NCBI GenBank assembly: GCA_003641425.1
Contig: QNAH01000001.1
Span: 1 to 33,227 of the forward strand
Length of the DNA: 33,227 nucleotides
Reading direction: 5' to 3'
DNA from: Candidatus Zixiibacteriota bacterium
GTDB taxonomy: Bacteria; Zixibacteria; MSB-5A5; GN15; PGXB01
The notes under the pieces were generated by a model. It had not been told where the DNA came from. It searched no databases and saw nothing but the letters and a program-made list of their open reading frames with translations. Made by a program: the position numbers and the translations under genes. Below are positions 3,403 through 29,378 of this stretch, one piece after another; positions within the stretch are counted from its first letter, which is position 1, and every line of letters begins with the position of its first letter.

Positions 3403-4704
3403 CTACTTCATCAGCAGCATCTTCTTGGCTTCTTTGAAATCGCCCGTCTTGATTTCGTAGAAATATATTCCTGACCGAACCGTGTAACCATCCTCGTCGG
3501 TACCATCCCAATTGATCGTGTACTGTCCCGCCTCCTGTCTGGTATTGACCAGCCTTTTGATTTTCCGGCCGAGAGTGTTATAGATGGAAATCTCGACATC
3601 GGTTTTTGACATCAGCGAATATTTGATGCTGGTCGATGCGTTAAACGGATTCGGATAATTCTGCGACAGGATGAATTTACCGGGAAGAGTCGGCCGATTA
3701 TCATCGGGTGTATCGCTTGGTTCATGCTCATAAGAATAAACCCCGTCACCGAGTGTGGCAAACCATACCACACCCGAAACTGTGACAGCGATATCTGTGA
3801 CCGAAGCATTACTTCCGATTCCGGTGAATCGATTGAATGTCGTCCAGACAGCACCGTCGAATTGCGATATCCAGACCTGGTTCGGATTAGTCCAGCTATG
3901 GCCGACCCAGATATATCCAAGACTGTCCATCGCCACTGCAGTGACCGCTCCCGGAGCAAGACCGTCGCCGGCCTCGGTATAATCGACCCATTCCGATCCC
4001 CGGTCGAATCTATTGAGTCCGGTATTGGTGCCGAACCAGATGTAGCCTGAGGGATCCTGCATGATGACATTGACAGTATCGTCGAGCAAACCGCTGTTCG
4101 ACTCCTCGTACGTGGTCCAGTTACCGTCGAGATCGAGTTTCGAAACTCCATTACGTGTCCCAAACCATTTGTTTCCGTCGCTGTCAATCAGCGATGCCAG
4201 GATATTATTACCGGCCAGACCGCTGTCGATAGTATAATGGGCTACCGTGGTGGTGTCGGCATCATGTTTGACGACACCCGCGCCGAATGTCCCCAGCCAG
4301 AGGAAACCGGAGTCATCGACCACCATCGTCTTGATATCGACATAATCCAGATGATCTTCCTGATTAAACTGATCCCACTCCGATACACCATCGAAACTTC
4401 CAACACCGAATGTGGTCGCGAACCATAAATTACCTGCCGGATCGGAGGTTATATCATTGATGGCGTCGTTGATCAAACCATTGAAATGATTATATACGGG
4501 CCAGTCGTTACCGTCGAATTTTTGCACCCCCGCCCCGCCGCTTCCGAACCAGATATTTCCGGCTTCGTCGGCGTAAAGAGAATTTACATAATTGCTGACA
4601 AGATTTTCCAATTCGTCATACGCTGTCCAATCGGCCTGAACCAATGTGAAAAAGAGCGACAAAATCAAAACCAATATGAAAATCTTTAAGTATTTGAATT
4701 CCAT
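3403..4704 (-). CDS. Secreted beta-propeller protein (two-component-regulator-propeller / Reg_prop-like repeats) with T9SS C-terminal sorting domain
   Basis: Signal peptide MEFKYLKIFILVLILSLFFTLVQA. Repeated D..G.(I/L)WFGT..G(V/L) units. The C-terminal tail 'LSQNYPNPFNASTSIKYSL...GIYFYEIKTGDFKEAKKMLLMK' matches the Por/T9SS type-A tail pattern. Confidence 0.75.
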   Translation of the reverse strand: MEFKYLKIFILVLILSLFFTLVQADWTAYDELENLVSNYVNSLYADEAGNIWFGSGGAGVQKFDGNDWPVYNHFNGLINDAINDITSDPAGNLWFATTFGVGSFDGVSEWDQFNQEDHLDYVDIKTMVVDDSGFLWLGTFGAGVVKHDADTTTVAHYTIDSGLAGNNILASLIDSDGNKWFGTRNGVSKLDLDGNWTTYEESNSGLLDDTVNVIMQDPSGYIWFGTNTGLNRFDRGSEWVDYTEAGDGLAPGAVTAVAMDSLGYIWVGHSWTNPNQVWISQFDGAVWTTFNRFTGIGSNASVTDIAVTVSGVVWFATLGDGVYSYEHEPSDTPDDNRPTLPGKFILSQNYPNPFNASTSIKYSLMSKTDVEISIYNTLGRKIKRLVNTRQEAGQYTINWDGTDEDGYTVRSGIYFYEIKTGDFKEAKKMLLMK

Positions 4705-4985
4705 TTTTTTCTCCTTGTTTTATTATATGACGTAAAAACTAAGATAATATAGCAATAAAGTTGGCCCAAATAAATACCGGCCTTACTCGCCCTGAGATTG
4801 CTTTATAAAATGAGCGGGTGGAAAAGCCGCAATCATAACTTTTCAGCTTGCAAAAAAAGCAATCGCGTATTATCTTTAACTTATTGAGCGACAATAAAGT
4901 AATATGTCGTTAGCAATTGCCCAACGGCACAATGAAGTGTGATATTTTTTTATCGGGTCGGCAATAATGATGAGGAATTGGCGTG

Positions 4986-7976
4986 ATGAATATTAAATTA
5001 TTTATATCGGCTTTTTTATTATGTGCATTGATTCTTTCTAGTTTTGCTTTGTCCGGCGAGATTGCACCGGAACTTACCGCCCGGATATCGAACTTGTCCG
5101 GTGATGATATGATCCCGGTTATCATCACGCTAAAAAAGCCGGCCTATAAATCAAATCTTAAATCCGATATGGCCAAACGTTACAAAACTGCCGCAGAGCG
5201 TCATCTGGCCGGGGTGGAACAATTAAAAAGCGAGGCCGCGACACTTCAAGGCGATCTTATATCATCATTAAATCAATTACAGCAATCCGGGCTTGCCGAA
5301 AATGTAAAAAGCCGCTGGATAATTAACGGCGTCACCGCCGACCTGGCCCGATCCGAGATTGCAGACATCGCTTCACGTCCCGATGTTGCGATGGTATATG
5401 AACTCCCCGGATTACATCTGGTCGAATCATCATCTGATTATGCCGCTGCATCTCCGCAACTGCTGTCATCGTCCCCGGAACCGAATATTAAGCTGGTGGG
5501 AGCCGATTCGGCCTGGGCGCTGGGATATAACGGCGCCGGACGGATTGTCTGTTCATTCGATACCGGGGTCGAGGGGATTCACCCGGCGTTATTCGACAAA
5601 TGGAAGGGACATGACGGCGACTCAGCCGCGGCCTGGTTTGATCCTATCGGCATGGAATCGTTTCCGCATGTCTTTGGTTTTCTGGGCGATGACGGTACCC
5701 ACGGAACTCATACAATGGGTATTATGGTGGGGGCGTGTGATACCATGCGATTTGATAAAGACAGTATCGGGATCGCTCCGGGCGCCAAATGGATTTCCGC
5801 GGCGGTCGTCAGCCTGGCAGGTGTTTCCCTTATCGATGCTTTCGAATGGGCGGCCGATCCCGACGGCGATCCGAATACCATCAGCGATGTTCCCGATGTT
5901 ATTAACCACAGTTGGTATAATTTGGAGCTCGATTGCAGTGATTATTTCCACGAGATGATAGAGAACACCGAGGCGCTTGGTATTGTAAATGTATTCGCCG
6001 GCGGAAATAGCGGTCCCAATTCCCGCACTATGACGAATCCGGCAAATCTGGCCTTCGATTCTCTCGACTGCTTTGCGGTTGGATCGATTTATTACGGCGA
6101 CAGTATCGTCTCCGGATACTCTTCGCGAGGTCCATCTGACTGTAACCCGCTTTCGATTGATATGATCAAGCCGAACCTGGTCGCCCCCGGCGACAGTATC
6201 TGGTCATCGACCGGGTCAAATTATGTGTCCCGCGCAAGCGGGACCTCGATGGCGGCGCCGCATGTATCCGGAGCGGTGGCGATTCTGCGTCAGTATGCTC
6301 CCGATGCCACTGTCGATGAAATCAAGCAGGCGCTTATTGCTGGCGCGGTGCACCCGTCAATGGGTGAACCGTACCCGAACAACAATTACGGCTGGGGCGT
6401 GCTTTACATTCCGTCGGCACTCGAAGCGCTCGACTCAATCATGCATTCCCCCGTCGCAGATCTGCGCATCTACTCTTTCGATCAAAATCCGGTACTCCCC
6501 GGCGATACCGTTTCGGGCACGGTGGTGATAAAAAATGTTGGATCGGATATCGATGGTGTCATTGCAAACATCGCGGCGACGGCCGATGGGATGGATCTGC
6601 TGGTCAATTCCCTCCAATTCGGGACAATTTCATCCGGCGATACCGCCCACAGCGACATACCGTTCCGTGCCCTGGTGCATGATACCGTGACCACCGGGAC
6701 ATTGCTTTCTGTGGATATCGAGATGACCGGGGCCGGGGGTTATCTCAATCCGGCTCACCTGTATATCAGGGTCGGAACCGCACCCGAAGTTTCATATTAC
6801 ACGCACAGCAACGGTGCGCTGGATTTCACCATTTCCAATTTCGGAGAGTACGGTTTCGCCTTTTATTCTTTTTACCCGCTCAATTACAGCGGATTTCGTT
6901 ATCTCGACATGACCCGGAATGACCTGTTCGAGGGCGCTTTTCTGGTCGGTACCGATTCGGCCCATATATCGGATGGTGTCCGCAACATAGCCGGGGAACC
7001 GGACAATGATTTTGCGGTCGCTCCCGGCGGGGATCTGGTTGTCTGTACGCCCGGAACCAAAGCGGATCAGCAGACCTATTCGGTCTTTGATGACAGTAAG
7101 GCCGAAAATCCGATTGGTCTGGAAATTACCCAGAAAACTTACACATGGAACGATCCCCCCGCAGACAACATTGTCATTATGGAATATATCATAAAAAATG
7201 TCTCCGACAGTCTTATCGATAGTATCTATGCCGGTCTATTAATGGACTGGGATTTGCATTCGGGCCGAATTGATAGCGGCAACTATAATCCGGACAGTGA
7301 TATGGGATATATGTGGCATGGGCTGACCGGGTCCCCTGATGTCGTGCAGGCCAAGTACCGCGGGATATGTGTTCTCAGCGAGGAAGGCATGACGACACAT
7401 AAGATGGTATCGATTAATGAGCAGTCTAATACCAAGTACACCCTTTCGGAAGGAACGAAATACCAGGCGATTGCCTCGAATATTCTTGGCGGAAATCCCT
7501 TCAACATGGAGGCCGATTTCTGGGTGACTGTCGGTACCGGACCGTTTAACCTGGCGCCGGGGACAATGGACACAGCGGTGTTCGCATTGGTGGCCGCCGA
7601 TACGACACTTGACAATCTCATTGCCGCGGCGGCCGAGGCCCGAAATATGTATGATATCGTGACCAATATCGAGATTATCGATAATGAAATTCTTCCGGAA
7701 AGATTCGCACTTGATCAGAATTATCCCAACCCATTTAATCCATCGACGACGATTTCGTTTTCGCTGACAAAACGATCTCATGTTGAATTATCGATTTACA
7801 ATCTTCTCGGGCAAAAAGTGATCAATCTGATCGACAAGGAACTTTCGGCCGGAAATTACAGGACATCATGGGATGGGCGCGATAAATTCGGGGATGAAAC
7901 GGCCGGCGGGGTATATTTTTACCGGCTGAAGACGGGTGAATCGAGTCAGACACGCAAGATGGTTCTTCTGAAATAG
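4986..7976 (+). CDS. Subtilisin-like S8 serine peptidase, N-terminal propeptide, T9SS C-terminal sorting domain
   Basis: Signal peptide is present. Catalytic motifs are Asp (VCSFDTGV), His (HGTHTMGIMVG) and Ser (SGTSMAAPHVSGAVAIL). C-terminus is 'LDQNYPNPFNPSTTISFSL...GVYFYRLKTGESSQTRKMVLLK'. A GTG at 4983 is an alternative start. Confidence 0.9.
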   Translation: MNIKLFISAFLLCALILSSFALSGEIAPELTARISNLSGDDMIPVIITLKKPAYKSNLKSDMAKRYKTAAERHLAGVEQLKSEAATLQGDLISSLNQLQQSGLAENVKSRWIINGVTADLARSEIADIASRPDVAMVYELPGLHLVESSSDYAAASPQLLSSSPEPNIKLVGADSAWALGYNGAGRIVCSFDTGVEGIHPALFDKWKGHDGDSAAAWFDPIGMESFPHVFGFLGDDGTHGTHTMGIMVGACDTMRFDKDSIGIAPGAKWISAAVVSLAGVSLIDAFEWAADPDGDPNTISDVPDVINHSWYNLELDCSDYFHEMIENTEALGIVNVFAGGNSGPNSRTMTNPANLAFDSLDCFAVGSIYYGDSIVSGYSSRGPSDCNPLSIDMIKPNLVAPGDSIWSSTGSNYVSRASGTSMAAPHVSGAVAILRQYAPDATVDEIKQALIAGAVHPSMGEPYPNNNYGWGVLYIPSALEALDSIMHSPVADLRIYSFDQNPVLPGDTVSGTVVIKNVGSDIDGVIANIAATADGMDLLVNSLQFGTISSGDTAHSDIPFRALVHDTVTTGTLLSVDIEMTGAGGYLNPAHLYIRVGTAPEVSYYTHSNGALDFTISNFGEYGFAFYSFYPLNYSGFRYLDMTRNDLFEGAFLVGTDSAHISDGVRNIAGEPDNDFAVAPGGDLVVCTPGTKADQQTYSVFDDSKAENPIGLEITQKTYTWNDPPADNIVIMEYIIKNVSDSLIDSIYAGLLMDWDLHSGRIDSGNYNPDSDMGYMWHGLTGSPDVVQAKYRGICVLSEEGMTTHKMVSINEQSNTKYTLSEGTKYQAIASNILGGNPFNMEADFWVTVGTGPFNLAPGTMDTAVFALVAADTTLDNLIAAAAEARNMYDIVTNIEIIDNEILPERFALDQNYPNPFNPSTTISFSLTKRSHVELSIYNLLGQKVINLIDKELSAGNYRTSWDGRDKFGDETAGGVYFYRLKTGESSQTRKMVLLK

Positions 7977-15237: not shown

Positions 15238-15326
15238 GAGTTTTGATATTATTATAGATTGGGCCTCACAATGATGAAACTAAGACAAAGAAAAGCTGAG
15301 AAATAACAGGATTGGGATTGAAAAAA

Positions 15327-16388
15327 ATGGAATTCGGCATAATTGGTTCATCGGTCTGGCAACAAAATCTTCCTCTACTTGAATCACTGACTCTTGATCG
15401 CGAAGACAAAATCGAAAAGCTTCATCAATTGAAGGCAAAGCTTGAAATCAGCGAATTGATTTATCTGGCCACCTGTAATCGCGTGGAGTTTATTTATGCT
15501 TCAACTGGCAGATTTTCGAACAGCGAAATTTTCCATCGCCTTCTTGATTTCTTCTTTTCCGGTGGAAAGAAAATCAATTTTTTCCCGAATGACTTTTATC
15601 AGTATTCCGGCCGTGATGCCATAACCCATCTTTTCAGGACGGTTTCATCTCTGGAATCGCTGGTGATGGGAGAGGCGCAGATCGCCGGACAATTCAAATC
15701 TGCTTATGTCGAAGCCATCGAGTCCGGACTGGCCGGTCCGTTTCTCAGCAAACTTGCGGATCAGGCCCTCAATGTGGCCAAAAAAATTAAGCGCGAGACT
15801 GAAATAGGCAAGGGTGCTCAGTCGATGGCCTCGCTGGCCTTTTCCGAGCTGGAGGCGCATTTGAAGGATCGCCGGGATGCGACCATCGCTCTGATCGGGG
15901 CCGGTGAAATGACGCTTAAATTTGCCAAGTATATCAATAAGGCTGGCCTTGGTAATGTTCTTTTTGTAAATCGTTCACATGATAAAGCTGAAAAGCTTGC
16001 CGATGAATTCGGGGGCCGGGCGGCAGCATTAAACGATTTTTTGCTAGCTCCAGTAGCTATGCAGGCTATTGTTTCGGCGACTGCTTCCCCTACCCCCATC
16101 TTTAATGTGGATTTTCTAAATAGGCTGGATTCGACAGAGTCGCAGATTCTTTGTATCGACATGGCCATCCCTCGTGACTTCGCAGGTGAGTATTTAGCTG
16201 ACGACAGGGTGCGGCTGGTGGATATTCCATATTTGAAAGCCCGATCAAACGGAAATCTCCGCAAGAAATTTCTCGAGACCAGCAAGGCCAATGAGATTTT
16301 GAAACAGTCGGTACACAGATTTCTCACGGATCGTATGGAAATCTCGATCAAGCCGATTTTCCAGGAAAGTTACAATGAATCGATTTAA
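15327..16388 (+). CDS. hemA: Glutamyl-tRNA reductase, terminated early by an in-frame TAA (see 16389..16595)
   Basis: 'YLATCNRVEFIY' catalytic-Cys motif, NADPH-binding 'LIGAGEMTLKFAKY', and 'CIDMAIPRD'. ATG at 15327, with a TTG at 15312 as an alternative. The TAA at 16386-16388 falls inside the expected C-terminal dimerisation domain. Confidence 0.85.
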   Translation: MEFGIIGSSVWQQNLPLLESLTLDREDKIEKLHQLKAKLEISELIYLATCNRVEFIYASTGRFSNSEIFHRLLDFFFSGGKKINFFPNDFYQYSGRDAITHLFRTVSSLESLVMGEAQIAGQFKSAYVEAIESGLAGPFLSKLADQALNVAKKIKRETEIGKGAQSMASLAFSELEAHLKDRRDATIALIGAGEMTLKFAKYINKAGLGNVLFVNRSHDKAEKLADEFGGRAAALNDFLLAPVAMQAIVSATASPTPIFNVDFLNRLDSTESQILCIDMAIPRDFAGEYLADDRVRLVDIPYLKARSNGNLRKKFLETSKANEILKQSVHRFLTDRMEISIKPIFQESYNESI

Positions 16389-16595
16389 CTGGCCCAGACG
16401 GCCCTTGAAGATCTATTCTCCAAGAAGATCACATCGCTCAACGATGACGAAAAACAGGCCGTTTTGAGGCTGGTCACCAAGATTATCGGACATACCGCCT
16501 TCCAGCCGGCCAGAAAACTCTCCGATCGTCTGGCGCAAGTGCATTCTCAGTTAAACCTTGAAGATCTGGTAATACCGAAAAAGAGCGCCAGTTGA
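16389..16595 (+). other. In-frame continuation of hemA beyond the TAA (68 codons, HemA C-terminal-domain-like)
   Basis: Same frame as hemA. It has no start codon or SD of its own. It translates to LAQTALEDLFSKKITSLNDDEKQAVLRLVTKIIGHTAFQPARKLSDRLAQVHSQLNLEDLVIPKKSAS, which resembles the '...KLLHxPxxxLK' end of HemA proteins. Its TGA (16593-16595) overlaps the hemC TTG start (TTGA). Confidence 0.65.
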
Positions 16596-17506
16596 AACCG
16601 GTCAGTCTTATTATCGGGTCTAGAGGTTCGAATCTGGCCCTATATCAAGCTAATCTAATAAAATCAGTTCTCGAAAAAAAACATTCGTGCCGGGTGTCGA
16701 TCAAAATCGTTAAAACGTCCGGCGATAAAATAGACGACATATCCTTCGACAAGATGGAAGGTAAGTGTTTCTTCACCAAAGAATTGGAAGACAGCCTCTT
16801 AAGCCACGAGATCGATCTTGCCGTACACTCTCTCAAAGATCTGATGACGGTACAGCCGGATGGGCTTAAACTCGGCGCCGTAGGGTATCGCGCGGATCGC
16901 CGGGAGATGCTTCTTATTAGAAAGGAATCAAGGATCGGCAACGGTGTTCTTCCCGTGAAAGAGGGCGGAATCATCGGTACAAGCTCCGCCCGCCGAAAAT
17001 GCCAGATCAATTTTCATAACGACTCTCTTCAGATAAAAGACCTGCGCGGTAATGTCCCCACCCGCGTTAATAAGTTGAGACAGGGGATGTACGATACCAT
17101 CGTCATTGCCGTCGCTGGAGTGAAGAGACTCGGGCTTGATCTGTCCGACCTGGATGCAATCGAACTTGAGCCGGAGACTTTTCTTCCCGCTCCTGCTCAA
17201 GGCATTCTTGGTATTCAGATCCGCAGCGATGATGAAAAGACGGATGCTGTCGTGTCGAAAATGAACTCCTGTGATGCGGCGGCCGAGGCCGCACTGGAGC
17301 GCGGATTGCTGGCGGAATTCGATTCCGGATGTTCACTGCCGCTTGGCGTCTATTCCGAAATTGAAAGCGAACGATATCGCCTGAAGGCGGTTCTGGGAGT
17401 GCCGGCAGCCGAAGGTTGGGGCAGCATTAGAAGTGTCGATATTTCCGGTGACAACATTGATGATGTTGTCATGAACGCCTTCAGGAGATTGAACGAGGAT
17501 GAATAA
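16592..17506 (+). CDS. hemC: Hydroxymethylbilane synthase (porphobilinogen deaminase)
   Basis: 'IGSRGSNLALYQA', 'GNVPTRVNKL', 'IVIAVAGVKRLGL' and the cofactor-Cys region 'FDSGCSLPLGVY'. Confidence 0.92.
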   Translation: MKPVSLIIGSRGSNLALYQANLIKSVLEKKHSCRVSIKIVKTSGDKIDDISFDKMEGKCFFTKELEDSLLSHEIDLAVHSLKDLMTVQPDGLKLGAVGYRADRREMLLIRKESRIGNGVLPVKEGGIIGTSSARRKCQINFHNDSLQIKDLRGNVPTRVNKLRQGMYDTIVIAVAGVKRLGLDLSDLDAIELEPETFLPAPAQGILGIQIRSDDEKTDAVVSKMNSCDAAAEAALERGLLAEFDSGCSLPLGVYSEIESERYRLKAVLGVPAAEGWGSIRSVDISGDNIDDVVMNAFRRLNEDE

Positions 17507-17508
17507 TC

Positions 17509-18210
17509 ATGCGTCTCGCCATCACCCGACAATTGTCTCAAATTGATGATATCATTCATATCGCCTCGGCCAGAGGTATCGAAATAGTTTCTCTTCCTTT
17601 GATAAAAACAGAAAATCTCAAGTTTAAAATCGACGAGAATAAAATGCGGCAGGTAGACTGGCTCTTTTTTAGTAGTGTCAACGGGGTCCATGCTTTTTTT
17701 GAAAGATTGCGGGAATTGGATATCCACCCGCGCCAGGAAACCAAAATAGGGGCGATCGGGATGAAAACCGCTGAAGCGCTTGCCTATTACGGACTTAAAG
17801 TCGATTTTGTTCCGGAAGAAGCATACGGGAAAAATCTGTTTCTCGAATTTCTAAAAAAGGTGGCGAGCGGCAAAGAAACGGTCATGTATTCGCGCGCTAA
17901 AAAAATTGTCTTTGACCCCGAATGTCTTTTCCGGCTGGCTGGCATAGGGTATTATCCCGTTGTCAGTTACGAGGCCAGAGAAGGTGATATTTCGGAAGGG
18001 GTCGTTTCGTCTCTGTCAGAGACGAATTTTATATTGTTCACGGCGCCGTCAACGATAAGATCATATCATAAAAAGTTTGGAATACCGATTGCCAGAACGA
18101 TTGCAATCGGCCGAACGACAGCCAAAGAAATGGACTTGCATAATTGGCAAATATTCAAAATAATGGATATACCCAAAGTAGATATGGTATTGAATTATAT
18201 TGGAAGTTAA
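17509..18210 (+). CDS. hemD: Uroporphyrinogen-III synthase
   Basis: Its position is between hemC and hemL, 2 nt after the hemC stop. It has the HemD size and the 'DWLFFSSVNGV' / 'FTAPSTIRSY' pattern of the two-lobed fold. Confidence 0.8.
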   Translation: MRLAITRQLSQIDDIIHIASARGIEIVSLPLIKTENLKFKIDENKMRQVDWLFFSSVNGVHAFFERLRELDIHPRQETKIGAIGMKTAEALAYYGLKVDFVPEEAYGKNLFLEFLKKVASGKETVMYSRAKKIVFDPECLFRLAGIGYYPVVSYEAREGDISEGVVSSLSETNFILFTAPSTIRSYHKKFGIPIARTIAIGRTTAKEMDLHNWQIFKIMDIPKVDMVLNYIGS

Positions 18211-18269
18211 GTCGGCCATTTTTTGAGGGCGGCCGCCGGCGCTAATTTGCTAAACCAGAGGTAAGGAAA

Positions 18270-19577
18270 ATGGAAGAGAAAAATTTGATAACCGATAGAT
18301 CACGGGAGCTTCTGGAAAAATCGATCAAAGTTATCCCCGGCGGTGTCAATTCGCCGGTCAGGGCATTCAAGTCCGTGGGCGGTTCGCCGCGTTTTATAGA
18401 AAGAGGTGAAGGCGCCTATCTTTTTGATGTCGATGGAAACCGCTATCTTGATTTCTGCTGTTCATGGGGTCCGCTAATCCTGGGGCATGCCGATCCGGAT
18501 GTTGTCGAGGCCGTTAAAAGTCAGGCTGAGAACGGCATGACATTTGGAGCCACAACCGAACTGGAATTTCGACTTGCCGATTTTATTGTCAGCCATGTCG
18601 AACCGATCGAAAAAATCCGCTTTGTTTCATCCGGGACCGAGGCGGTTATGTCGGCCATTCGGACCGCCCGCGGTTTTACCGGACGCGATCTGATTCTCAA
18701 GTTCGACGGCTGCTATCACGGGCATTCTGATTATCTTCTGGTCAAGGCTGGGTCGGGTCTGGTTACTTTTGGTCAGCCGTCGTCAGCCGGCGTTCCGGAA
18801 AGCATCACCAGCCAGACAGCGGTGTTACCTCTTGATGATGAAGAGGCGCTCGAAGATTTCTTCCGGGAGCATGGCGACAATCTGGCCGCCGCCATTATCG
18901 AAGGCATTCCGGCCAATAACGGGCTTCTGGTACAGCGCCATGATTTTATGCGCTTGCTGAGGGCGCTTACCGAAAAACATGGGGTACTGCTGATTCTCGA
19001 CGAGGTTATCACCGGCTTTCGCCTTGGGCTCGAAGGCGCTGCGGCGTATTACGGCATTCATCCCGACCTGCTTACTTATGGCAAAATTATCGGCGGCGGT
19101 ATGCCGGTTGGTGCCTTCGGCGGACGAGCCGAGGTTATGGATAAGTTATCACCACTTGGCCCTGTTTATCAGGCCGGAACATTATCGGGTAATCCTCTGG
19201 CAATGGCCGCCGGATTGGCAACTCTTGCGAAGCTGGCCGACGGCCGCCTTTATTACGAACTGGAAAATAAAAACCGTCTGTTTGTTCGCGAAATCACGGA
19301 GCATCTTCGCGAGTATACGGTCAATGTTGCCGGGGTGGCCTCGATTTTCTGGATCATCTTCCAGAAAGAACTTCCGCGTCGGGCCGATTGTATTGACCCC
19401 GACGGTATCTCGCATTATAACAGGATGCATGAAAAGGTTCTCAACAGCGGGATATATATTCCCCCGTCTGGTTATGAGGTCTGTTTTATATCATCGGCAC
19501 ATTCGGAGGATATGCTTAAAGAAGCCGCGGCAACTCTGGTCGACGCCATCAAGCGGGAGGCACACCGGTGGGCCTGA
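18270..19577 (+). CDS. hemL: Glutamate-1-semialdehyde 2,1-aminomutase
   Basis: 'IPGGVNSPVRAF', 'SGTEAVMSAIRTARGFTGR', 'LILDEVITGFR' and the PLP-Lys region 'TYGKIIGGGMPVGAFGG'. Confidence 0.95.
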   Translation: MEEKNLITDRSRELLEKSIKVIPGGVNSPVRAFKSVGGSPRFIERGEGAYLFDVDGNRYLDFCCSWGPLILGHADPDVVEAVKSQAENGMTFGATTELEFRLADFIVSHVEPIEKIRFVSSGTEAVMSAIRTARGFTGRDLILKFDGCYHGHSDYLLVKAGSGLVTFGQPSSAGVPESITSQTAVLPLDDEEALEDFFREHGDNLAAAIIEGIPANNGLLVQRHDFMRLLRALTEKHGVLLILDEVITGFRLGLEGAAAYYGIHPDLLTYGKIIGGGMPVGAFGGRAEVMDKLSPLGPVYQAGTLSGNPLAMAAGLATLAKLADGRLYYELENKNRLFVREITEHLREYTVNVAGVASIFWIIFQKELPRRADCIDPDGISHYNRMHEKVLNSGIYIPPSGYEVCFISSAHSEDMLKEAAATLVDAIKREAHRWA

Positions 19578-20593
19578 AGGACAGCAACTTTATAAAGGCA
19601 TGCTACGGCCGCAACGATGGACCGGTGCCGATCTGGATTATGCGCCAGGCGGGACGATACTTGCCGGAATACCAGGCGGTCCGCGAAAAGGTCACATTTC
19701 TCGAACTGTGCCGAACCCCAGATCTTATCGCCGAAGTGGTCAAACAACCGATCGACAGGTTTGACCTGGATGCCGCTATACTCTTTTCCGACATTCTTAC
19801 AATCCTTGAGCCGATGGGTGTGAAGGTGGGATTTCCCGAGGGCGGTCCGGAGATAGAGGCCCCGATAACCGGGCCGGATGATATCAATCGGCTGATCGAT
19901 TTCGATATTGAGGCTGAGATGCCGTACGTGATGAATGGCGTAAAAAAAATCAAAGAGATCCTGCCGGATAAACCCCTTATCGGTTTTGCCGGTTCTCCGT
20001 TTACAGTCGCCTGTTATCTGATACAGGGCAAGGGATCGAAAAATTTTGATTTTGCCAAAAAATTTATTCATAAATACCCCTCGGCGGCCCGTCGCCTGAT
20101 TGATTTCCTCTCGGTGATTACCGCGCGATACCTAAAGGCGCAGGTCGATGCCGGAGCTGACGCCGTTCAACTATTCGAAAGCTGGGGCGGTATTCTTTCC
20201 CGCGAGGATTTCAAGACGATGTCGATCGATGCTTCGAATAAAATATTCGGGACTCTTGCATCAGCCGAAGCGCCGCGAATACTTTTCGTGAACAACATCG
20301 CCCCTTACCTTGATATGATAAAAGACGTGGATTGCGAGGCGGTCGGTATCGATTACCGTACCAGCCTTGCCGATGCCGCCAGATCCCTGCCTGGTAAAGC
20401 GGTGCAGGGGAATCTTGATCCGGCGGTACTATTTGGCTCGGTCGAGCATGTGCGGGAAAAAACATCACGGCTCCTTGACAGTATCGATGATCTCTCCCGC
20501 CTGATTTTTAATCTCGGCCACGGCATTATGGTCGAAACACCGATTGAATCGGTTTATGCCATGGTGGAAGAGGTTCACAATTACAGGAGATGA
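19568..20593 (+). CDS. hemE: Uroporphyrinogen decarboxylase
   Basis: 'PIWIMRQAGRYLPEY' signature. The GTG start overlaps the hemL 3' end by 10 nt. Confidence 0.92.
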   Translation: MGLKDSNFIKACYGRNDGPVPIWIMRQAGRYLPEYQAVREKVTFLELCRTPDLIAEVVKQPIDRFDLDAAILFSDILTILEPMGVKVGFPEGGPEIEAPITGPDDINRLIDFDIEAEMPYVMNGVKKIKEILPDKPLIGFAGSPFTVACYLIQGKGSKNFDFAKKFIHKYPSAARRLIDFLSVITARYLKAQVDAGADAVQLFESWGGILSREDFKTMSIDASNKIFGTLASAEAPRILFVNNIAPYLDMIKDVDCEAVGIDYRTSLADAARSLPGKAVQGNLDPAVLFGSVEHVREKTSRLLDSIDDLSRLIFNLGHGIMVETPIESVYAMVEEVHNYRR

Positions 20594-21993
20594 ACATGAC
20601 GTCCGGAAATGGAATAACATCGGTTCCGGTCGAACTGCTCAGAAAGTATGATCGTCCCGGACCAAGGTACACCAGCTATCCCACAGCGCCGGTCTGGTCC
20701 GAAAAAACCGGGCCTCGTGACTATGCCAACGCATTGAAATCCGCCTCGTTACACGCCGGCCGATCGTTGGCCGCGTATGTGCATATCCCTTTCTGCCGTA
20801 AGAGGTGCTACTATTGCGGCTGTAACACCTATATCACCAGGAGCGGCAAGCGTGTCGAAAATTATGTCGGAACTCTTATTGAAGAAATGGAGCAAACAGC
20901 CGGGCACCTGGGCGGGCGCAAAAAAATAAGTCAGCTTCATTTCGGCGGCGGTACACCGACCTTTCTGAATATAATGCAATTTGATTCAATCCTGAAAGAT
21001 TTCGGGAGATATTTTGAATTTACGCCGGACTGCGAAAAGTCACTTGAGATAGATCCCCGCGTGACCACATCAGAGCAGCTTGAATTCCTGGCCTCTCGTG
21101 GTTTTAATCGTATCTCGATCGGGGTGCAAGACACCGACGCATTGGTACAGAAGGCTATCGGTCGGATTCAATCCTATGAACTTGTCAGCCGGGTCGTGGA
21201 ATCCTGCCGTAAACTTGGCTTCAAAGGCGTCAATATCGACCTGATATACGGCCTGCCACGCCAATCCGAACTTCGATTCCATGAATCACTTGCGAAGGCA
21301 ATCGCACTGAAGCCGGACCGGGTGGCCCTGTACAACTTCGCCTATCTGCCCGGGATAAAGACACATCAAAGCAGAATTGATCCCGATGATCTGCCTCCGG
21401 CGGAGATAAAATACCGGCTTTTTGCCGAGGCGGTCAGGATGTTCACCGGCGCGGGGTATCGGCAGATTGGTATGGATCATTTTGCATTGCCTGATGACGA
21501 ACTTTCCGTGGCCCAGAACGATGGCCGGCTCTACCGCAATTTTATGGGTTACACGGTGCAATCATCGCCCGATATGATCGGCCTGGGCATGTCGTCGATA
21601 GGGTATATCAACAGTTCTTTCTTTCAGAATCAATCCGGGCTGGAGGCTTACATGAACGCTGTCAGCGACACGGGCCTGGCCACCTACCGCGGGATGAAAC
21701 TGTCTGATGATGATCTGGTTCGGCAGACAGTGATTATGTCACTGATGTGCAACTTTCGGCTTGACTTTTACGATATCAGGAAACAGTTAGGAATCGATTA
21801 TCTCACGTATTTTTATGATGAGCACCAGCGTCTGGCCGAGTTCTTTGCCGATGGCCTTCTTGTCATGCGTAATGGCGGAATCGAGGTTACTCCCGTAGGA
21901 CGGACGTTTATCCGGAATATCGCCATGACGTTCGATAGTTATTTAAGCAAAGACCCGCCCGGTAGCAAGCCGACATTCTCAAGAACAATTTAA
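20590..21993 (+). CDS. hemN: Oxygen-independent coproporphyrinogen-III oxidase-like radical SAM enzyme
   Basis: 'YVHIPFCRKRCYYCGC' CxxxCxxC radical-SAM cluster motif, 'HFGGGTPT', 'RISIGVQD', and the HemN C-terminal region. ATGA overlap with hemE. Confidence 0.9.
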   Translation: MNMTSGNGITSVPVELLRKYDRPGPRYTSYPTAPVWSEKTGPRDYANALKSASLHAGRSLAAYVHIPFCRKRCYYCGCNTYITRSGKRVENYVGTLIEEMEQTAGHLGGRKKISQLHFGGGTPTFLNIMQFDSILKDFGRYFEFTPDCEKSLEIDPRVTTSEQLEFLASRGFNRISIGVQDTDALVQKAIGRIQSYELVSRVVESCRKLGFKGVNIDLIYGLPRQSELRFHESLAKAIALKPDRVALYNFAYLPGIKTHQSRIDPDDLPPAEIKYRLFAEAVRMFTGAGYRQIGMDHFALPDDELSVAQNDGRLYRNFMGYTVQSSPDMIGLGMSSIGYINSSFFQNQSGLEAYMNAVSDTGLATYRGMKLSDDDLVRQTVIMSLMCNFRLDFYDIRKQLGIDYLTYFYDEHQRLAEFFADGLLVMRNGGIEVTPVGRTFIRNIAMTFDSYLSKDPPGSKPTFSRTI

Positions 21994-25434: not shown

Positions 25435-26706
25435 ATGAGTATTTCAACCAGAACATTGTTTCTGTTGGTCTTTTTTGCTTTGTCAAATGCGGCCGTCGCC
25501 GGCATCGATGAAGACAGCATCTTCTATAAGATTGTCCGCCCCGCCTATCCCATGACCTGGCTGGAGGCGCGTGATTCGGCCGCGGCGCTGGACGGATACC
25601 TGGCTGTGATAAGCGATCAAGCCGAACAGAAGACAATTACCGCTTTGCTGAACGGTACCGAAACAGCATGGATTGGCGGCAGCGATGTTGTTGTCGAGGG
25701 ACGCTGGCGATGGTCGAACGGCGAGACATGGATTTTCGACAATTGGATACCGGGACAGCCCGATACCGCGGCCGGAATGGATTACGCCGTCATGGATCCG
25801 GGGGGCATTTATAGCTGGCGGGCCGCTTCCGGGACCGCCGATGCTTTCGTGGTCGAGTGGGATTGCTGCCGTTCCGGATTTACCGGGAATGTCAACTGCG
25901 ATTCGCAGGGCGCCATAAATATCCTCGATATCTCCTATCTGATCAATTACCTGTATAATTCGGGACCATCGCCCTGTTGCCGTGATCTGGCAAATGTCGA
26001 TGGTGATTCCGATAATAATGTAAATCTGCTGGATGTACTAAGGATTATCAATTTTCTTTATATCAGCCATGAACCTCCATCCGAATGCGGACCGGGTGTC
26101 ATTGAGCCGTTCGATACCACAATCATTGTCGATCGTCTGGGAAAAGAATGGGATGTATCATATGGGGTACATTTCTACGGCATGGATCCGGCCAATTTCA
26201 ATTTTGGTCTGGGCGCCGGCTTTTTCCCGCCGTTTGTAAATCCCGAGTTCCTCTCGCCGGGGGATTCCGGCTACCCCGTGCCTGATGATCCCATGGGAAT
26301 ACTGGCGACGACTATCAATGGAGAAAGCCGTGCCTATAAGCTTGACGCCCTGATCGGGCACGAAGTGGTCAATGATCGATTCGACAACATCTATGTCGCT
26401 CCCGCTTACTGACCGCTTAAAAACCTGGCTGTCGTGTACAGCCGAGAGATCAATGGCGAAATATTGACCCTTGCGGCCAGCGGATGGACCTATAATTTCT
26501 CCTTTGTCCTTTATGATCATGAAACCGAGACAATGTGGCTTCCGGTAAATGTCGGCGACGGCGGCCCCAACAGTTGCGGTTGTGTAATGTGGGGCTTTGC
26601 CGGACCGTTTGCCGGACGGTTTCTTCATGCCTACCCCTCGAGCAATACCAACTGGAATATCTGGTGGCCGGAACACCCCGACACCAAGATTATGAAAACG
26701 GAATAA
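25435..26706 (+). CDS. Secreted C-type-lectin / dockerin-like / DUF3179 fusion protein containing one in-frame TGA (26410-26412), either candidate selenocysteine or a nonsense mutation
   Basis: SD AAGGGGG plus a signal peptide. C-type lectin-like region (WLEARDSAAALDGYLAVISD...WIGGSD..VEGRWRWSNGETW). Dockerin-like duplicated EF-hand (GNVNCDSQGAINILDISYLINYLY / ANVDGDSDNNVNLLDVLRIINFLY). The ORF-track pieces 25435..26412 and 26434..26706 are in the same frame. Joined, they form one DUF3179-like domain: ...INGESRAYKLDALIGHEVVNDRFDNIYVAPAY[TGA]PLKNLAVVYSREINGEILTLAASGW...VLYDHETETMW...WWPEHPDTKIM. Confidence 0.6.
26426..26444 (+). promoter_or_regulatory. SECIS-like hairpin downstream of the DUF3179 TGA
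   Basis: uGGCUGU-CGUGU-ACAGCCg is a 6-bp stem plus a closing U.G pair. The apical-loop GU lies 24-25 nt from the U of UGA, nearly the same spacing as in the SelW-like gene. Confidence 0.4.
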
Positions 26707-26830: not shown

Positions 26831-27064
26831 ATGAAAATTAGTATAAAATACTGTGTTGAATGAAATTACCTGCCCCGTGCCGTCGGTCTGGCGGATGCTG
26901 TCAAAAAAAGATTTGGATTGGAATCCCGATTAATAAAAGGGGGCGGGGGCGTTTTTGAGGTCGCCTTCGATAACAAAGTCTTTTACAGCAAAAAGGACAA
27001 TCGTGGCCGTTTCCCGACCCATGAAGAGATATTCGAATTAATCGAAAAATATCAAAACACGTAA
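26831..27064 (+). CDS. SelW-like / Rdx-family selenoprotein (CxxU), 77 aa with in-frame TGA at 26861-26863
   Basis: SD AGAGG lies 5 nt upstream of the ATG. The translation is MKISIKYCVE[U]NYLPRAVGLADAVKKRFGLESRLIKGGGGVFEVAFDNKVFYSKKDNRGRFPTHEEIFELIEKYQNT. It follows the Rdx pattern (I.YC..C/U....RA...A..L...FG....LI.G.GG.FEV......++SK...GRFP...E+). It is absent from the ORF track because of the TGA. Confidence 0.85.
26876..26897 (+). promoter_or_regulatory. SECIS-like hairpin of the SelW-like gene
   Basis: The core is CCGUC-GGUCU-GGCGG (26880-26894). A lower extension with a bulged G is possible. The GGUCU apical loop resembles the E. coli fdhF SECIS loop. The first loop G is 24 nt from the U of UGA. 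Confidence 0.6.
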
Positions 27065-27271: not shown

Positions 27272-27886
27272 ATGTCAGAAGAAAATGGGGCATCAAAATC
27301 CGAAAAACTATCCAATCCCCAAACCTGGGTGGATGTACACGGTGATTTTCTTTTCGGATATGCTATCCTGCGATTGAAGGATACCTCTACCGCGGAAGAT
27401 GCTGTGCAGGAGACTTTTTTAGCCGCCCTGAATGCCAGGGATTCTTTCAGGGGCCAGTCCGGCGAACGGACCTGGCTCGTTTCTATCCTTAAGAACAAAA
27501 TCATCGACCATTTTCGTCGCCTCAGCCGGGAGGTCGATTTCCACAATAATGATATTGACGTAATCGATGATGATTTTATTGCATCCGGCCCGAGAGCGGG
27601 TACCTGGAAAGCCGGTCAAAGACCATCCGAGTGGGTAGTCGACGCTGCCGACCTTGCCGAACAAAAAGAATTCTGGGAATATCTGCGCAAATGCATCGAT
27701 CGGATGCCGCCGCATATCGGGATGGTCTTTATCCTGCGCGACATCGAGAATATGAAAAATGAAGATATCTGTAACGTTTTGACGGTTCAGCCGACTAATC
27801 TGAGAGTAATATTGCACCGTGCGCGAAAGCGTTTACGCCGGTGCCTTGAAAAAATATGGCTGAATACCGAAAGGAGCGAACGGTGA
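27272..27886 (+). CDS. ECF-type RNA polymerase sigma-70 factor
   Basis: Region 2 ('DAVQETFLAAL...ERTWLVSILKNKIIDHFRR') and region 4 ('ICNVLTVQPTNLRVILHRARKRLRRCL'). About 200 aa. Confidence 0.9.
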   Translation: MSEENGASKSEKLSNPQTWVDVHGDFLFGYAILRLKDTSTAEDAVQETFLAALNARDSFRGQSGERTWLVSILKNKIIDHFRRLSREVDFHNNDIDVIDDDFIASGPRAGTWKAGQRPSEWVVDAADLAEQKEFWEYLRKCIDRMPPHIGMVFILRDIENMKNEDICNVLTVQPTNLRVILHRARKRLRRCLEKIWLNTERSER

Positions 27887-28398: not shown

Positions 28399-28521
28399 AT
28401 GTCGATGATGTGCAACAAAGAAAGCTGTAAAGCAAAGAGAGGTATGTGCGGGCATGAAAAGATGATGATGTGGGGAATTTTGATAGTCTCCGCAATCGGT
28501 CTTTCTTACTGGCTTATTTAG
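28399..28521 (+). CDS. 40-aa Cys/Met-rich single-TM micro-protein
   Basis: SD AGGAG lies 8 nt upstream of the ATG. The translation is MSMMCNKESCKAKRGMCGHEKMMMWGILIVSAIGLSYWLI. The N-terminal half has 3 Cys, 1 His and 7 Met. The C-terminal half is a TM helix. It is below the ORF-track size cutoff. Confidence 0.55.
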   Translation: MSMMCNKESCKAKRGMCGHEKMMMWGILIVSAIGLSYWLI

Positions 28522-28571
28522 AGATGGGACAAAAAGCAGGAAATATTAACAAATACAAAGAAGGAGTAATA

Positions 28572-29378
28572 ATGATGAAAGCAATGAAAAACATGATTTT
28601 AGGTCTGTTGCTGACTGGGGCGATGATGACGACCGCGGCGGCCCAAAAAGATCCGGGTAATCCCTGTGGTCATAAGAACGGCATGATGTTTCATATCGAT
28701 GACCCGATGAGCCGCAATTCGGTGACTTTCAAGAGTACCGCCCCTCTGGAGGATATTGTGGGGACCAGCAATGAGATAACCGGCTACATTCAATTCAATC
28801 CGAGCCATCCCGAAAACGGCGGTCATGGGGAGTTTACCGTTCCGGTGGCCAGTCTCAATACCGGAATTCCTCTGAGAGATGAGCATCTGCGAAGCGCCGA
28901 TTGGCTGAATGCCGGCGCGTATCCCGACATCAAACTGACCGTCAAGAATATCAAGAATATAAAGGAAGTCAAATCGTCGGGTGATGCCCAGACATACGAC
29001 ATAACTTTCATGGGTAATCTGTCTTTTAACGGAAAGACCCGATATACCAAGGTCAAAGGGCGGATGACCTACCTTCAGGAAAGTGAAGCCACGAAACAAC
29101 GTATGCCGGGTGATCTGGTGGCGGTTCGCGCGGAGTTAAATATCCCGCTGGCGGAGTTCGATGTAATCGGACCGGAGGGAATGGGTATTATCGGCTCCAA
29201 GGTCGGCAAGACAATCGATGTCGAGATCAGCCTGATGGCAAGCACCCGAGCATCGTCACTTGCCGCCGAGGCCGGGAATCCGTGCGGGGACAAGGCGATG
29301 AATCCCTGTAATCCCTGCGGTGGGAAATCAATGGACGCGCACAATCCGTGCGGGATGAAGAAGAGCGACTCAAGGTAA
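28572..29378 (+). CDS. YceI-like periplasmic protein with NPCG-repeat Cys-rich termini
   Basis: SD AAGGAG precedes the ATG at 28572, followed by signal peptide MMKAMKNMILGLLLTGAMMTTAAA. YceI-like core ('SVTFKSTAPLEDIVGTSNEITGYIQF...VPVASLNTGIPLRDEHLRSADWLNAGAYPDIKL'). GNPCGH follows the signal peptide. The tail is GNPCGDKAMNPCNPCGGKSMDAHNPCGMKK. Confidence 0.75.
   Translation: MMKAMKNMILGLLLTGAMMTTAAAQKDPGNPCGHKNGMMFHIDDPMSRNSVTFKSTAPLEDIVGTSNEITGYIQFNPSHPENGGHGEFTVPVASLNTGIPLRDEHLRSADWLNAGAYPDIKLTVKNIKNIKEVKSSGDAQTYDITFMGNLSFNGKTRYTKVKGRMTYLQESEATKQRMPGDLVAVRAELNIPLAEFDVIGPEGMGIIGSKVGKTIDVEISLMASTRASSLAAEAGNPCGDKAMNPCNPCGGKSMDAHNPCGMKKSDSR

Follow-up and report, generated by a model that had tools for sequence, protein, structure and literature searches.

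A DUF3179-family gene of a Candidatus Zixiibacteriota bacterium with a conserved in-frame UGA that is very likely read as selenocysteine

The uncharacterized family DUF3179 (PF11376/pfam11376) appears in the prokaryotic selenoprotein family tables of two reviews, where it is given the motif UxxC/T (PMC9312934, PMC13188914). Both reviews credit Zhang and Gladyshev (2007) and the metagenome of the Olavius algarvensis symbionts (PMC9312934, PMC13188914). NCBI likewise names one of our matches “DUF3179 domain-containing (seleno)protein.” We analyzed a gene of this family in a 33,227-nucleotide (nt) stretch of Candidatus Zixiibacteriota bacterium DNA (contig QNAH01000001.1 of assembly GCA_003641425.1), which we refer to as the window. 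An earlier note on this DNA had proposed that an in-frame TGA at positions 26410-26412 encodes selenocysteine (Sec, U) in a new, exported selenoprotein. Our comparative data strongly support a Sec codon at the first Cys of the CPLC motif, followed by a hairpin resembling a selenocysteine insertion sequence (SECIS), and we consider it very likely that the TGA is a Sec codon with a conserved SECIS in an exported DUF3179 protein. The claim of a new family fails because the two reviews and the NCBI naming already list DUF3179 as a selenoprotein family. It has been listed as one in bacteria since 2007, and the window gene is a new, mis-annotated member of it.

Compared by description, the catalogued DUF3179 selenoproteins and the window protein belong to the same Pfam family, place Sec at the conserved first Cys, have a stem-loop directly after the UGA, and have Cys-containing homologs. 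The window protein differs from them in being a single-module short form with a lectin and dockerin N terminus and a CxC insertion.

The first open reading frame (ORF) of the gene, 25435..26412 (325 aa), closes on the TGA, after which the same frame resumes with seven sense codons up to a GTG at 26434; the second ORF, 26434..26706, runs to a TAA at 26704-26706. These coordinates confirm the original description of two ORFs in one frame separated by the TGA plus seven sense codons, and the junction reads ...NIYVAPAY-TGA-PLKNLAVVYSREINGE. Together, ORF reading and Pfam support a complete selenoprotein gene of 423 codons on the forward strand (25435..26706), with UGA (Sec) as codon 326 and TAA as the stop. 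Gene callers make the same two-ORF split at orthologous loci, and the public gene call for the window protein ends at the TGA (P0001, 325 aa). Such an annotation is what a strain-specific nonsense mutation would produce, in which a TGY codon (TGC or TGT) changed to TGA, truncating the protein at residue 325 and leaving the downstream ORF as a decaying remnant. The truncated product, however, would miss half of a compact domain. PF11376 matches the joined product over residues 264-422 (26224..26700, forward strand) in one unbroken stretch across the TGA, read as a single residue (92 bits against a cutoff of 27; E = 5.9e-26). The proposal that the joined halves form one DUF3179 domain therefore held with respect to a single match spanning the TGA and fell short with respect to the length of the domain: the match covers only profile positions 4-149 of 292, where the protein ends, which makes the window protein a short, single-module form. 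The short-form clade as a whole lacks the second half of the model, with C-terminal parts of ~88-100 aa. Among 46 homologs, H85, E86, D137, W144, and G166 are invariant in the family, and A76, Y77, N89, D90, W183, and W186 are at least 93% conserved; the window protein has every one of these residues.

The TGA (residue 326; 26410..26412, forward strand) aligns with a nearly invariant Cys. Aligning 47 sequences, full-length Cys-form relatives included, gave the family consensus PVAVTYCPLCNxAVVYxR, and the TGA column is Cys in 45/46 Cys-form homologs, so the “VAVTY-C-PLC” motif given in the earlier note was correct. Cys-form DUF3179 proteins (P0008, P0010, and Scalindua and Brocadia proteins; ~290-380 aa) share a core with the window protein that consists of R/K-A-Y, H-E-x-V-N-D, C-P-L, S-G, D, W, and W..W..HPDT. 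They differ in having Cys in place of Sec and ~150 more residues that match the second half of the Pfam model, and they do not have the conserved hairpin after the Cys codon. The Lys at the second motif Cys of the window protein had been considered unusual, yet the +3 position is Cys in just 24/46 Cys forms (Ala in 19/46) and in 3 of 136 Sec forms, the remainder of which have V (99), I (13), A (11), Q (4), R (3), K (2), or E (1), making Lys unremarkable in this family. From these residues, Sec in this clade would normally have no CxxC-type partner.

TGA is present at this codon in each of the six orthologous loci identified first, which come from a complete Zixibacteria genome (CP070766.1, which holds the L001/L011 ortholog), additional metagenome-assembled genomes (MAGs), and JGI, ENA, and Logan contigs. 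The DUF3179 domains at these loci share 51-69% identity with that of the window, and the in-frame region is conserved for 97-116 codons past the TGA where the contig allows. Wider scans of GTDB species genomes and JGI metagenomes, with the clade alignment as the query, yielded 158 loci with 176 occurrences of the motif and 146 distinct segments of 99 nt. TGA is found in 136 segments and TGC or TGT in 10, a ratio that applies to the Sec clade and not to all of DUF3179 since the scan patterns were Sec-clade peptides. At GTDB species-representative loci, TGA is present in 64/78, often as tandem copies. Loci with TGA are labeled Zixibacteria, Ignavibacteria (Ignavibacteriaceae), Calditrichota, KSB1, Latescibacterota, Krumholzibacteriia, Bacteroidota, Poribacteria, Anammoxibacter, and Acidobacteriota, among others. 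On both sides of the TGA, substitutions fall preferentially at third codon positions.

These results bear directly on the nonsense-mutation explanation. This codon is TGA in 136 different sequences spread over many phyla, and the downstream frame stays open for ~88-116 codons with third-position-biased substitution, as expected of coding sequence. One other observation favors a pseudogene, a frameshift in the lectin region of a short orthologous contig (L005:1-450, an ENA ERZ23495065 scaffold), of which a near-identical copy (L013) is intact; the frameshift may be genuine or may stem from misassembly of this 1.4-kb contig. We regard the pseudogene explanation as effectively refuted, with a negligible probability of being correct. 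A sequencing or assembly error at 26410-26412, which only the general prior for metagenome assemblies favors, has next to no chance of explaining the TGA: this TGA is the stopping point in three independent metagenome contigs from different samples (L089, L090, and L091) that share 99% identity with the window, in the cluster to which the 325-aa NCBI protein belongs, and in every more distant ortholog. The null hypothesis posed at the outset, a nonsense mutation or a sequencing error, was thus rejected. As a separate observation, one split DUF3179 gene on a 16.3-kb contig (P0009; JGI 3300072015) reads ...VAITN before the stop instead of ending in Y.

Fold energy and covariation identified a bacterial SECIS-type hairpin at 26426..26444 (forward strand), confirming the hairpin described previously. 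Positions 26426-26432 pair with 26438-26444 in a 7-bp stem that includes one U.G pair (-9.3 kcal/mol), closing a CGUGU loop (26433-26437) in which the G and U are 24 and 25 nt past the U of UGA. The hairpin begins 13 nt after the UGA, and 20 nt (26413-26432) separate the UGA from the loop. According to the Fig. 2A legend of one review, bacterial SECIS (bSECIS) elements in the bSECISearch consensus model have a loop of 3-9 nt and a stem of 4-16 bp, with a G at loop position 1 or 2, usually with G or U after it, a distance of 16-37 nt from the UGA to the apical loop, and a minimum free energy (MFE) of -7.5 kcal/mol or lower (PMC13188914). The window hairpin lies within all four of these constraints, with 7 bp in the stem, a 5-nt loop whose second and third positions are G and U, and the 20-nt spacing at -9.3 kcal/mol; its binding of SelB is putative. 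Most clade members depart from the model in that the closing U-A pair is a C.A mismatch, which results in a 7-nt loop, CCGUGUA, with the G at position 3.

The significance of the hairpin derives from comparative evidence and not from the window sequence alone. In an ungapped alignment of the 136 Sec-form segments, in which the hairpin stands at a constant spacing from the UGA, the core 5 bp are paired in 97-100% of 133 distinct rows, and changes on both sides are found in 5 of the 7 stem pairs; none of 500 shuffles attained the observed values, and pairing dropped to 16-61% in slid-register controls. The stem variants include GGCUG/CAGCC, GACUG/CAGUC, GGGUG/CACCC, GGUUG/CAACC, UGCUG/CAGCA, and GGUCA/UGACC. 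In 27 rows, a G-C pair is replaced by an A-U pair through an Ala-to-Thr change that is matched by a synonymous AGC-to-AGU change. As the earlier note had envisaged, TGA orthologs with a downstream hairpin exist beside Cys orthologs, and the stem is kept only with TGA, by none of the 10 TGY forms. Two of these TGY forms (L048:4230 and L140:2699) are paralogs that share a genome with Sec copies and that encode T-A-V-Y-S/K in other codons. The covariation and the loss of the stem in TGY forms indicate that selection acts on the stem as RNA and that the stem goes together with the UGA. We abandoned the MFE of the whole region as a discriminator between Sec and Cys forms: the Cys forms are richer in GC and fold just as stably, and the two are told apart only by the covarying stem at its specific position. 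As an additional observation, the 17-nt stretch GGCTGCCGTGTACAGCC (alignment A3 columns 23-41; window 26426-26444) is nearly invariant in nucleotides across many phyla and could be used to search for this clade of selenoproteins.

The seven codons between the UGA and the GTG, together with the hairpin, also allowed us to evaluate whether the locus produces two polypeptides, a 325-aa product ending at the TGA and a 90-aa product that reinitiates at the GTG at 26434, possibly assembling later. A GTG 21 nt after the TGA would permit such reinitiation, and a second ORF of 81-109 aa is called at the equivalent place in several loci. Against this arrangement, the intervening codons are conserved as protein (P-L-x-x-x-A-V) and align with the continuous Cys forms, the GTG is the Val codon of a conserved A-V-V-Y-S peptide that is not preceded by a purine-rich Shine-Dalgarno-like stretch, and the covarying hairpin has SECIS geometry. 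We therefore consider two separate polypeptides very improbable.

The window contains a second gene with an in-frame TGA, located 124 nt downstream of the DUF3179 gene. This SelW/Rdx-type selenoprotein gene (26831..27064, forward strand) has a CxxU motif (C-V-E-U) with its UGA at 26861-26863, and the protein starts MKISIKYCVE-U-NYLPRA.... Its identification as SelW-like in the earlier note stood, as the Pfam Rdx (62.3 bits) and TIGR02174 (50 bits; cutoff, 34.2) thresholds were passed; the score against NF041051 was 87.5 bits, just under the cutoff of 88. ORF lists split this gene at its TGA as well. A hairpin of -10.4 kcal/mol with a UGCCGU loop follows the UGA, and the loop begins ~14 nt past it, slightly short of the 16-37 nt consensus. 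The SelW/SelT/SelH (Rdx) proteins are unrelated in sequence to DUF3179, and this neighbor is relevant only as a sign that the host decodes UGA as Sec. Beyond the window, selA on the P0009 contig (JGI 3300072015) is followed ~800 nt downstream by a tandem pair of split DUF3179 genes (140+81 aa and 129+85 aa).

An adjacent known selenoprotein gene argues in turn against the last alternative, in which the UGA is read by a standard tRNA (Trp, Cys, or Gly) or under a reassigned code and not as Sec. A reassigned code conflicts with the use of TGA as the normal stop of 6 of the 22 long ORFs in the window, which indicates that UGA recoding is local; the other TGA-interrupted genes we encountered in the window were only spurious, out-of-frame cases. 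The identity of an inserted residue cannot be read from sequence alone, a point in favor of read-through by a standard tRNA. Nevertheless, the UGA pairs with Cys in the classic Sec/Cys manner, and the bSECIS-compliant hairpin varies together with TGA, disappearing from the TGY forms. Non-Sec read-through is accordingly an improbable explanation, with only a small chance of being correct.

Reading the UGA as Sec, the favored explanation, has to be weighed against several observations. The published motif is UxxC/T, whereas the window protein has U-P-L-K and its clade has U-P-L-V/I/A/Q/R/K. Considered by itself, the window hairpin is only modestly distinguished from chance (z = -2.5), with 5 of 200 shuffles folding equally well, and Rfam returned no SECIS family match for it at gathering thresholds or at E of ≤10. 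We detected no selA, selB, selC, or selD within the 33-kb window, and no tRNA-Sec gene (selC) in the window or in 60 related loci. The preponderance of TGA in our scans describes the Sec clade, as stated above, and neither PDB fold nor PDB profile searches revealed a structural or sequence relative with a known activity. The insertion of Sec at this codon is deduced from comparative evidence. Even so, with the gene structure, the Sec/Cys correspondence, the conservation of the TGA, and the covarying hairpin all observed directly, we consider Sec very likely. During translation, the hairpin at 26426-26444 would act as a bSECIS and recruit SelB with Sec-tRNA(Sec), a step suggested by the comparative evidence and the established bacterial mechanism, and the UGA at 26410-26412 would then be read as Sec and not as a stop.

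The resulting product would have a cleavable signal peptide, a C-type lectin domain, a dockerin-like module, and one DUF3179 module, in which Sec would replace the near-invariant first Cys (U-P-L-K here versus C-P-L-C/A in Cys forms). The predicted signal peptide (25435..25500, forward strand), read from the sequence by eye, is of the signal-peptidase-I type, with cleavage after MSISTRTLFLLVFFALSNAAVA and before G, and export of the window protein is suggested by this leader. Orthologs of the lectin clade have similar leaders that are without a Cys after the hydrophobic run. The C-type lectin domain spans residues 39-111 (25549..25767, forward strand; PF00059, Lectin_C, 30.8 bits against a cutoff of 22.6); the match is partial, covering profile positions 2-75 of 107, and a Q-P-D tripeptide is visible. 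The lectin domain is also found in orthologs from L012, L092, and L097 and in P0004 and P0007. A dockerin type I-like module follows at residues 157-208 (25903..26058, forward strand), where the Pfam match is marginal (PF00404, Dockerin_1, 25.0 bits against 22.9), two D/N-rich repeats of the Ca-binding type, NCDSQGAINILD and NVDGDSDNNVNLLD, are visible, and the segment is conserved among clade orthologs. A C-G-C motif at residues 381-383 (26575..26583, forward strand) lies in a short clade-specific insertion that orthologue alignments place in all lectin-dockerin members of the Sec clade that we compared (11 of the 132 Sec forms whose C-terminal part is complete) and that is missing from the closest Cys homolog, P0002. 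Separately, residues 150-206 of the dockerin region (~25882-26052) weakly match (E = 0.037) the C-terminal end of the NCBIfam model NF045500, “Omp28-related selenoprotein,” which hints that another selenoprotein family may carry a similar dockerin-like tail.

Most members of the Sec clade are smaller, consisting of ~135 residues, U, and then ~89 residues. A lipoprotein-type leader, with a hydrophobic run followed by a Cys, is present in 99 of 107 complete nonlectin members of the clade, from which the short-form clade is predicted to be extracytoplasmic. An exported location, which had been called an odd context for Sec, thus appears to be the rule in this clade. The lectin-dockerin sub-clade (the window, L001/L011, L002, L004, L005/L013, L012, L092, L095, L097, L098, and L099) is distinguished by an N-terminal part of ~320-350 aa with the lectin and dockerin modules, a leader without a Cys after the hydrophobic run, and the C-x-C insertion; its taxonomically labeled members are Zixibacteria and Ignavibacteriaceae MAGs. 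Two Krumholzibacteriia-type members have a different N-terminal extension. We found no description of a selenoenzyme displayed through a lectin-dockerin arrangement in the searchable literature. In one sub-clade locus (L002:6844-6987, reverse strand; JGI 3300062553), a neighboring 801-aa protein combines Peptidase_C1, Lectin_like, and Dockerin_1 domains, suggesting that lectin and dockerin modules are reused on other secreted enzymes in these organisms.

We also examined structure and gene neighborhood. The AlphaFold model of the Cys-form protein P0002 (45% identical) has a predicted local distance difference test score of >90 over the domain and is mostly beta. Foldseek searches of the PDB with this model returned nothing at E of ≤0.001. 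The best partial match, NirD (2jo6; probability, 0.35; template-modeling score of 0.52 normalized to the target), raised a Rieske-like fold as a candidate that we set aside as too weak to use. A sequence-profile search of the PDB likewise gave nothing meaningful and no sequence relative with a solved structure.

Across 79 genome loci, a protein of ~308 aa is encoded directly downstream of DUF3179 Sec genes in 15 (for example, L014:3622-4545, reverse strand), in MAGs labeled KSB1, Calditrichota, Latescibacterota, and Cytophagia. It matched no family in Pfam or NCBIfam and has a signal peptide and a C-terminal half that is beta-barrel-like in look. ArsS, the “arsenosugar biosynthesis radical SAM (seleno)protein” (TIGR04167, 427 bits), is encoded 1-2 kb downstream of short-form Sec genes at seven genome loci, mainly of Latescibacterota (L031, L034, L044, L051, L054, L066, and L083), and also on several metagenome contigs (L127, L128, L135, and L139). 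This recurrence could reflect a functional linkage or a mere clustering of selenoprotein genes. Neither the ~308-aa protein nor ArsS adjoins the loci of the lectin-dockerin clade, and a radical-SAM gene adjacent to the L001 locus belongs to a different family. Transferring a function from these neighbors to the window gene is not justified.

The window gene is accompanied instead by the SelW-type gene, an extracytoplasmic function (ECF) sigma/anti-sigma pair, a two-component system, and a heme biosynthesis cluster. The ECF-type sigma factor (27272-27886) and the anti-sigma factor (NF052368; 27856-28209) are encoded on the forward strand with a 31-nt overlap, directly downstream of the two selenoprotein genes. 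A YceI-like protein (28470-29378, forward strand) has N-P-C-G motifs near its N terminus (GNPCGHK) and at its C-terminal end (GNPCGDKAMNPCNPCGGKSMDAHNPCGMKK), in what looks like a Cys-rich tail that might bind metal. Further upstream, the heme/tetrapyrrole cluster (15312-21993, forward strand) encodes GluTR, porphobilinogen deaminase, HemD, a class-III aminotransferase, URO-D, and a HemN-like radical SAM protein. Two proteins carry the type IX sorting domain Por_Secre_tail, a Reg_prop-repeat protein (3403-4704, reverse strand) and a 997-aa subtilase (4983-7976, forward strand), suggesting that the organism uses a type IX secretion system alongside dockerin-type modules.

Sec in the window protein would take the place of a single, nearly invariant Cys and is for this reason most likely the one reactive residue of an extracytoplasmic site involved in redox chemistry or in the handling of chalcogens or metals. 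The lectin and dockerin modules, to judge from their domain assignments, probably anchor the protein on glycans or on a scaffold at the cell surface. We tentatively offer a broader proposal, which as a whole is possible and not probable: that the clade, which extends over the FCB group and other phyla with a nearly uniform SECIS, uses Sec nearly exclusively and consists mostly of extracytoplasmic lipoproteins, and that the lectin-dockerin-CxC fusion of Zixibacteria and Ignavibacteria-type genomes is a selenoenzyme on an extracellular glycan-binding or cohesin-docked scaffold, its Sec, which lacks a resolving Cys at +3, acting on an external peroxide, a chalcogen or metalloid, or a metal. The ArsS neighbor in other clade members is a weak hint toward arsenic or selenium chemistry.

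These findings introduce neither a new selenoprotein family nor a new recoding mechanism. They do indicate that the window gene and well over a hundred relatives are split or cut at the TGA in public records, and that joining the parts would restore a complete, predicted exported protein. One branch of an uncharacterized family thereby appears to use Sec almost exclusively, and outside the cytoplasm, in phyla that are known mostly from MAGs, and the lectin-dockerin fusion may provide a handle for studies of its localization and function.

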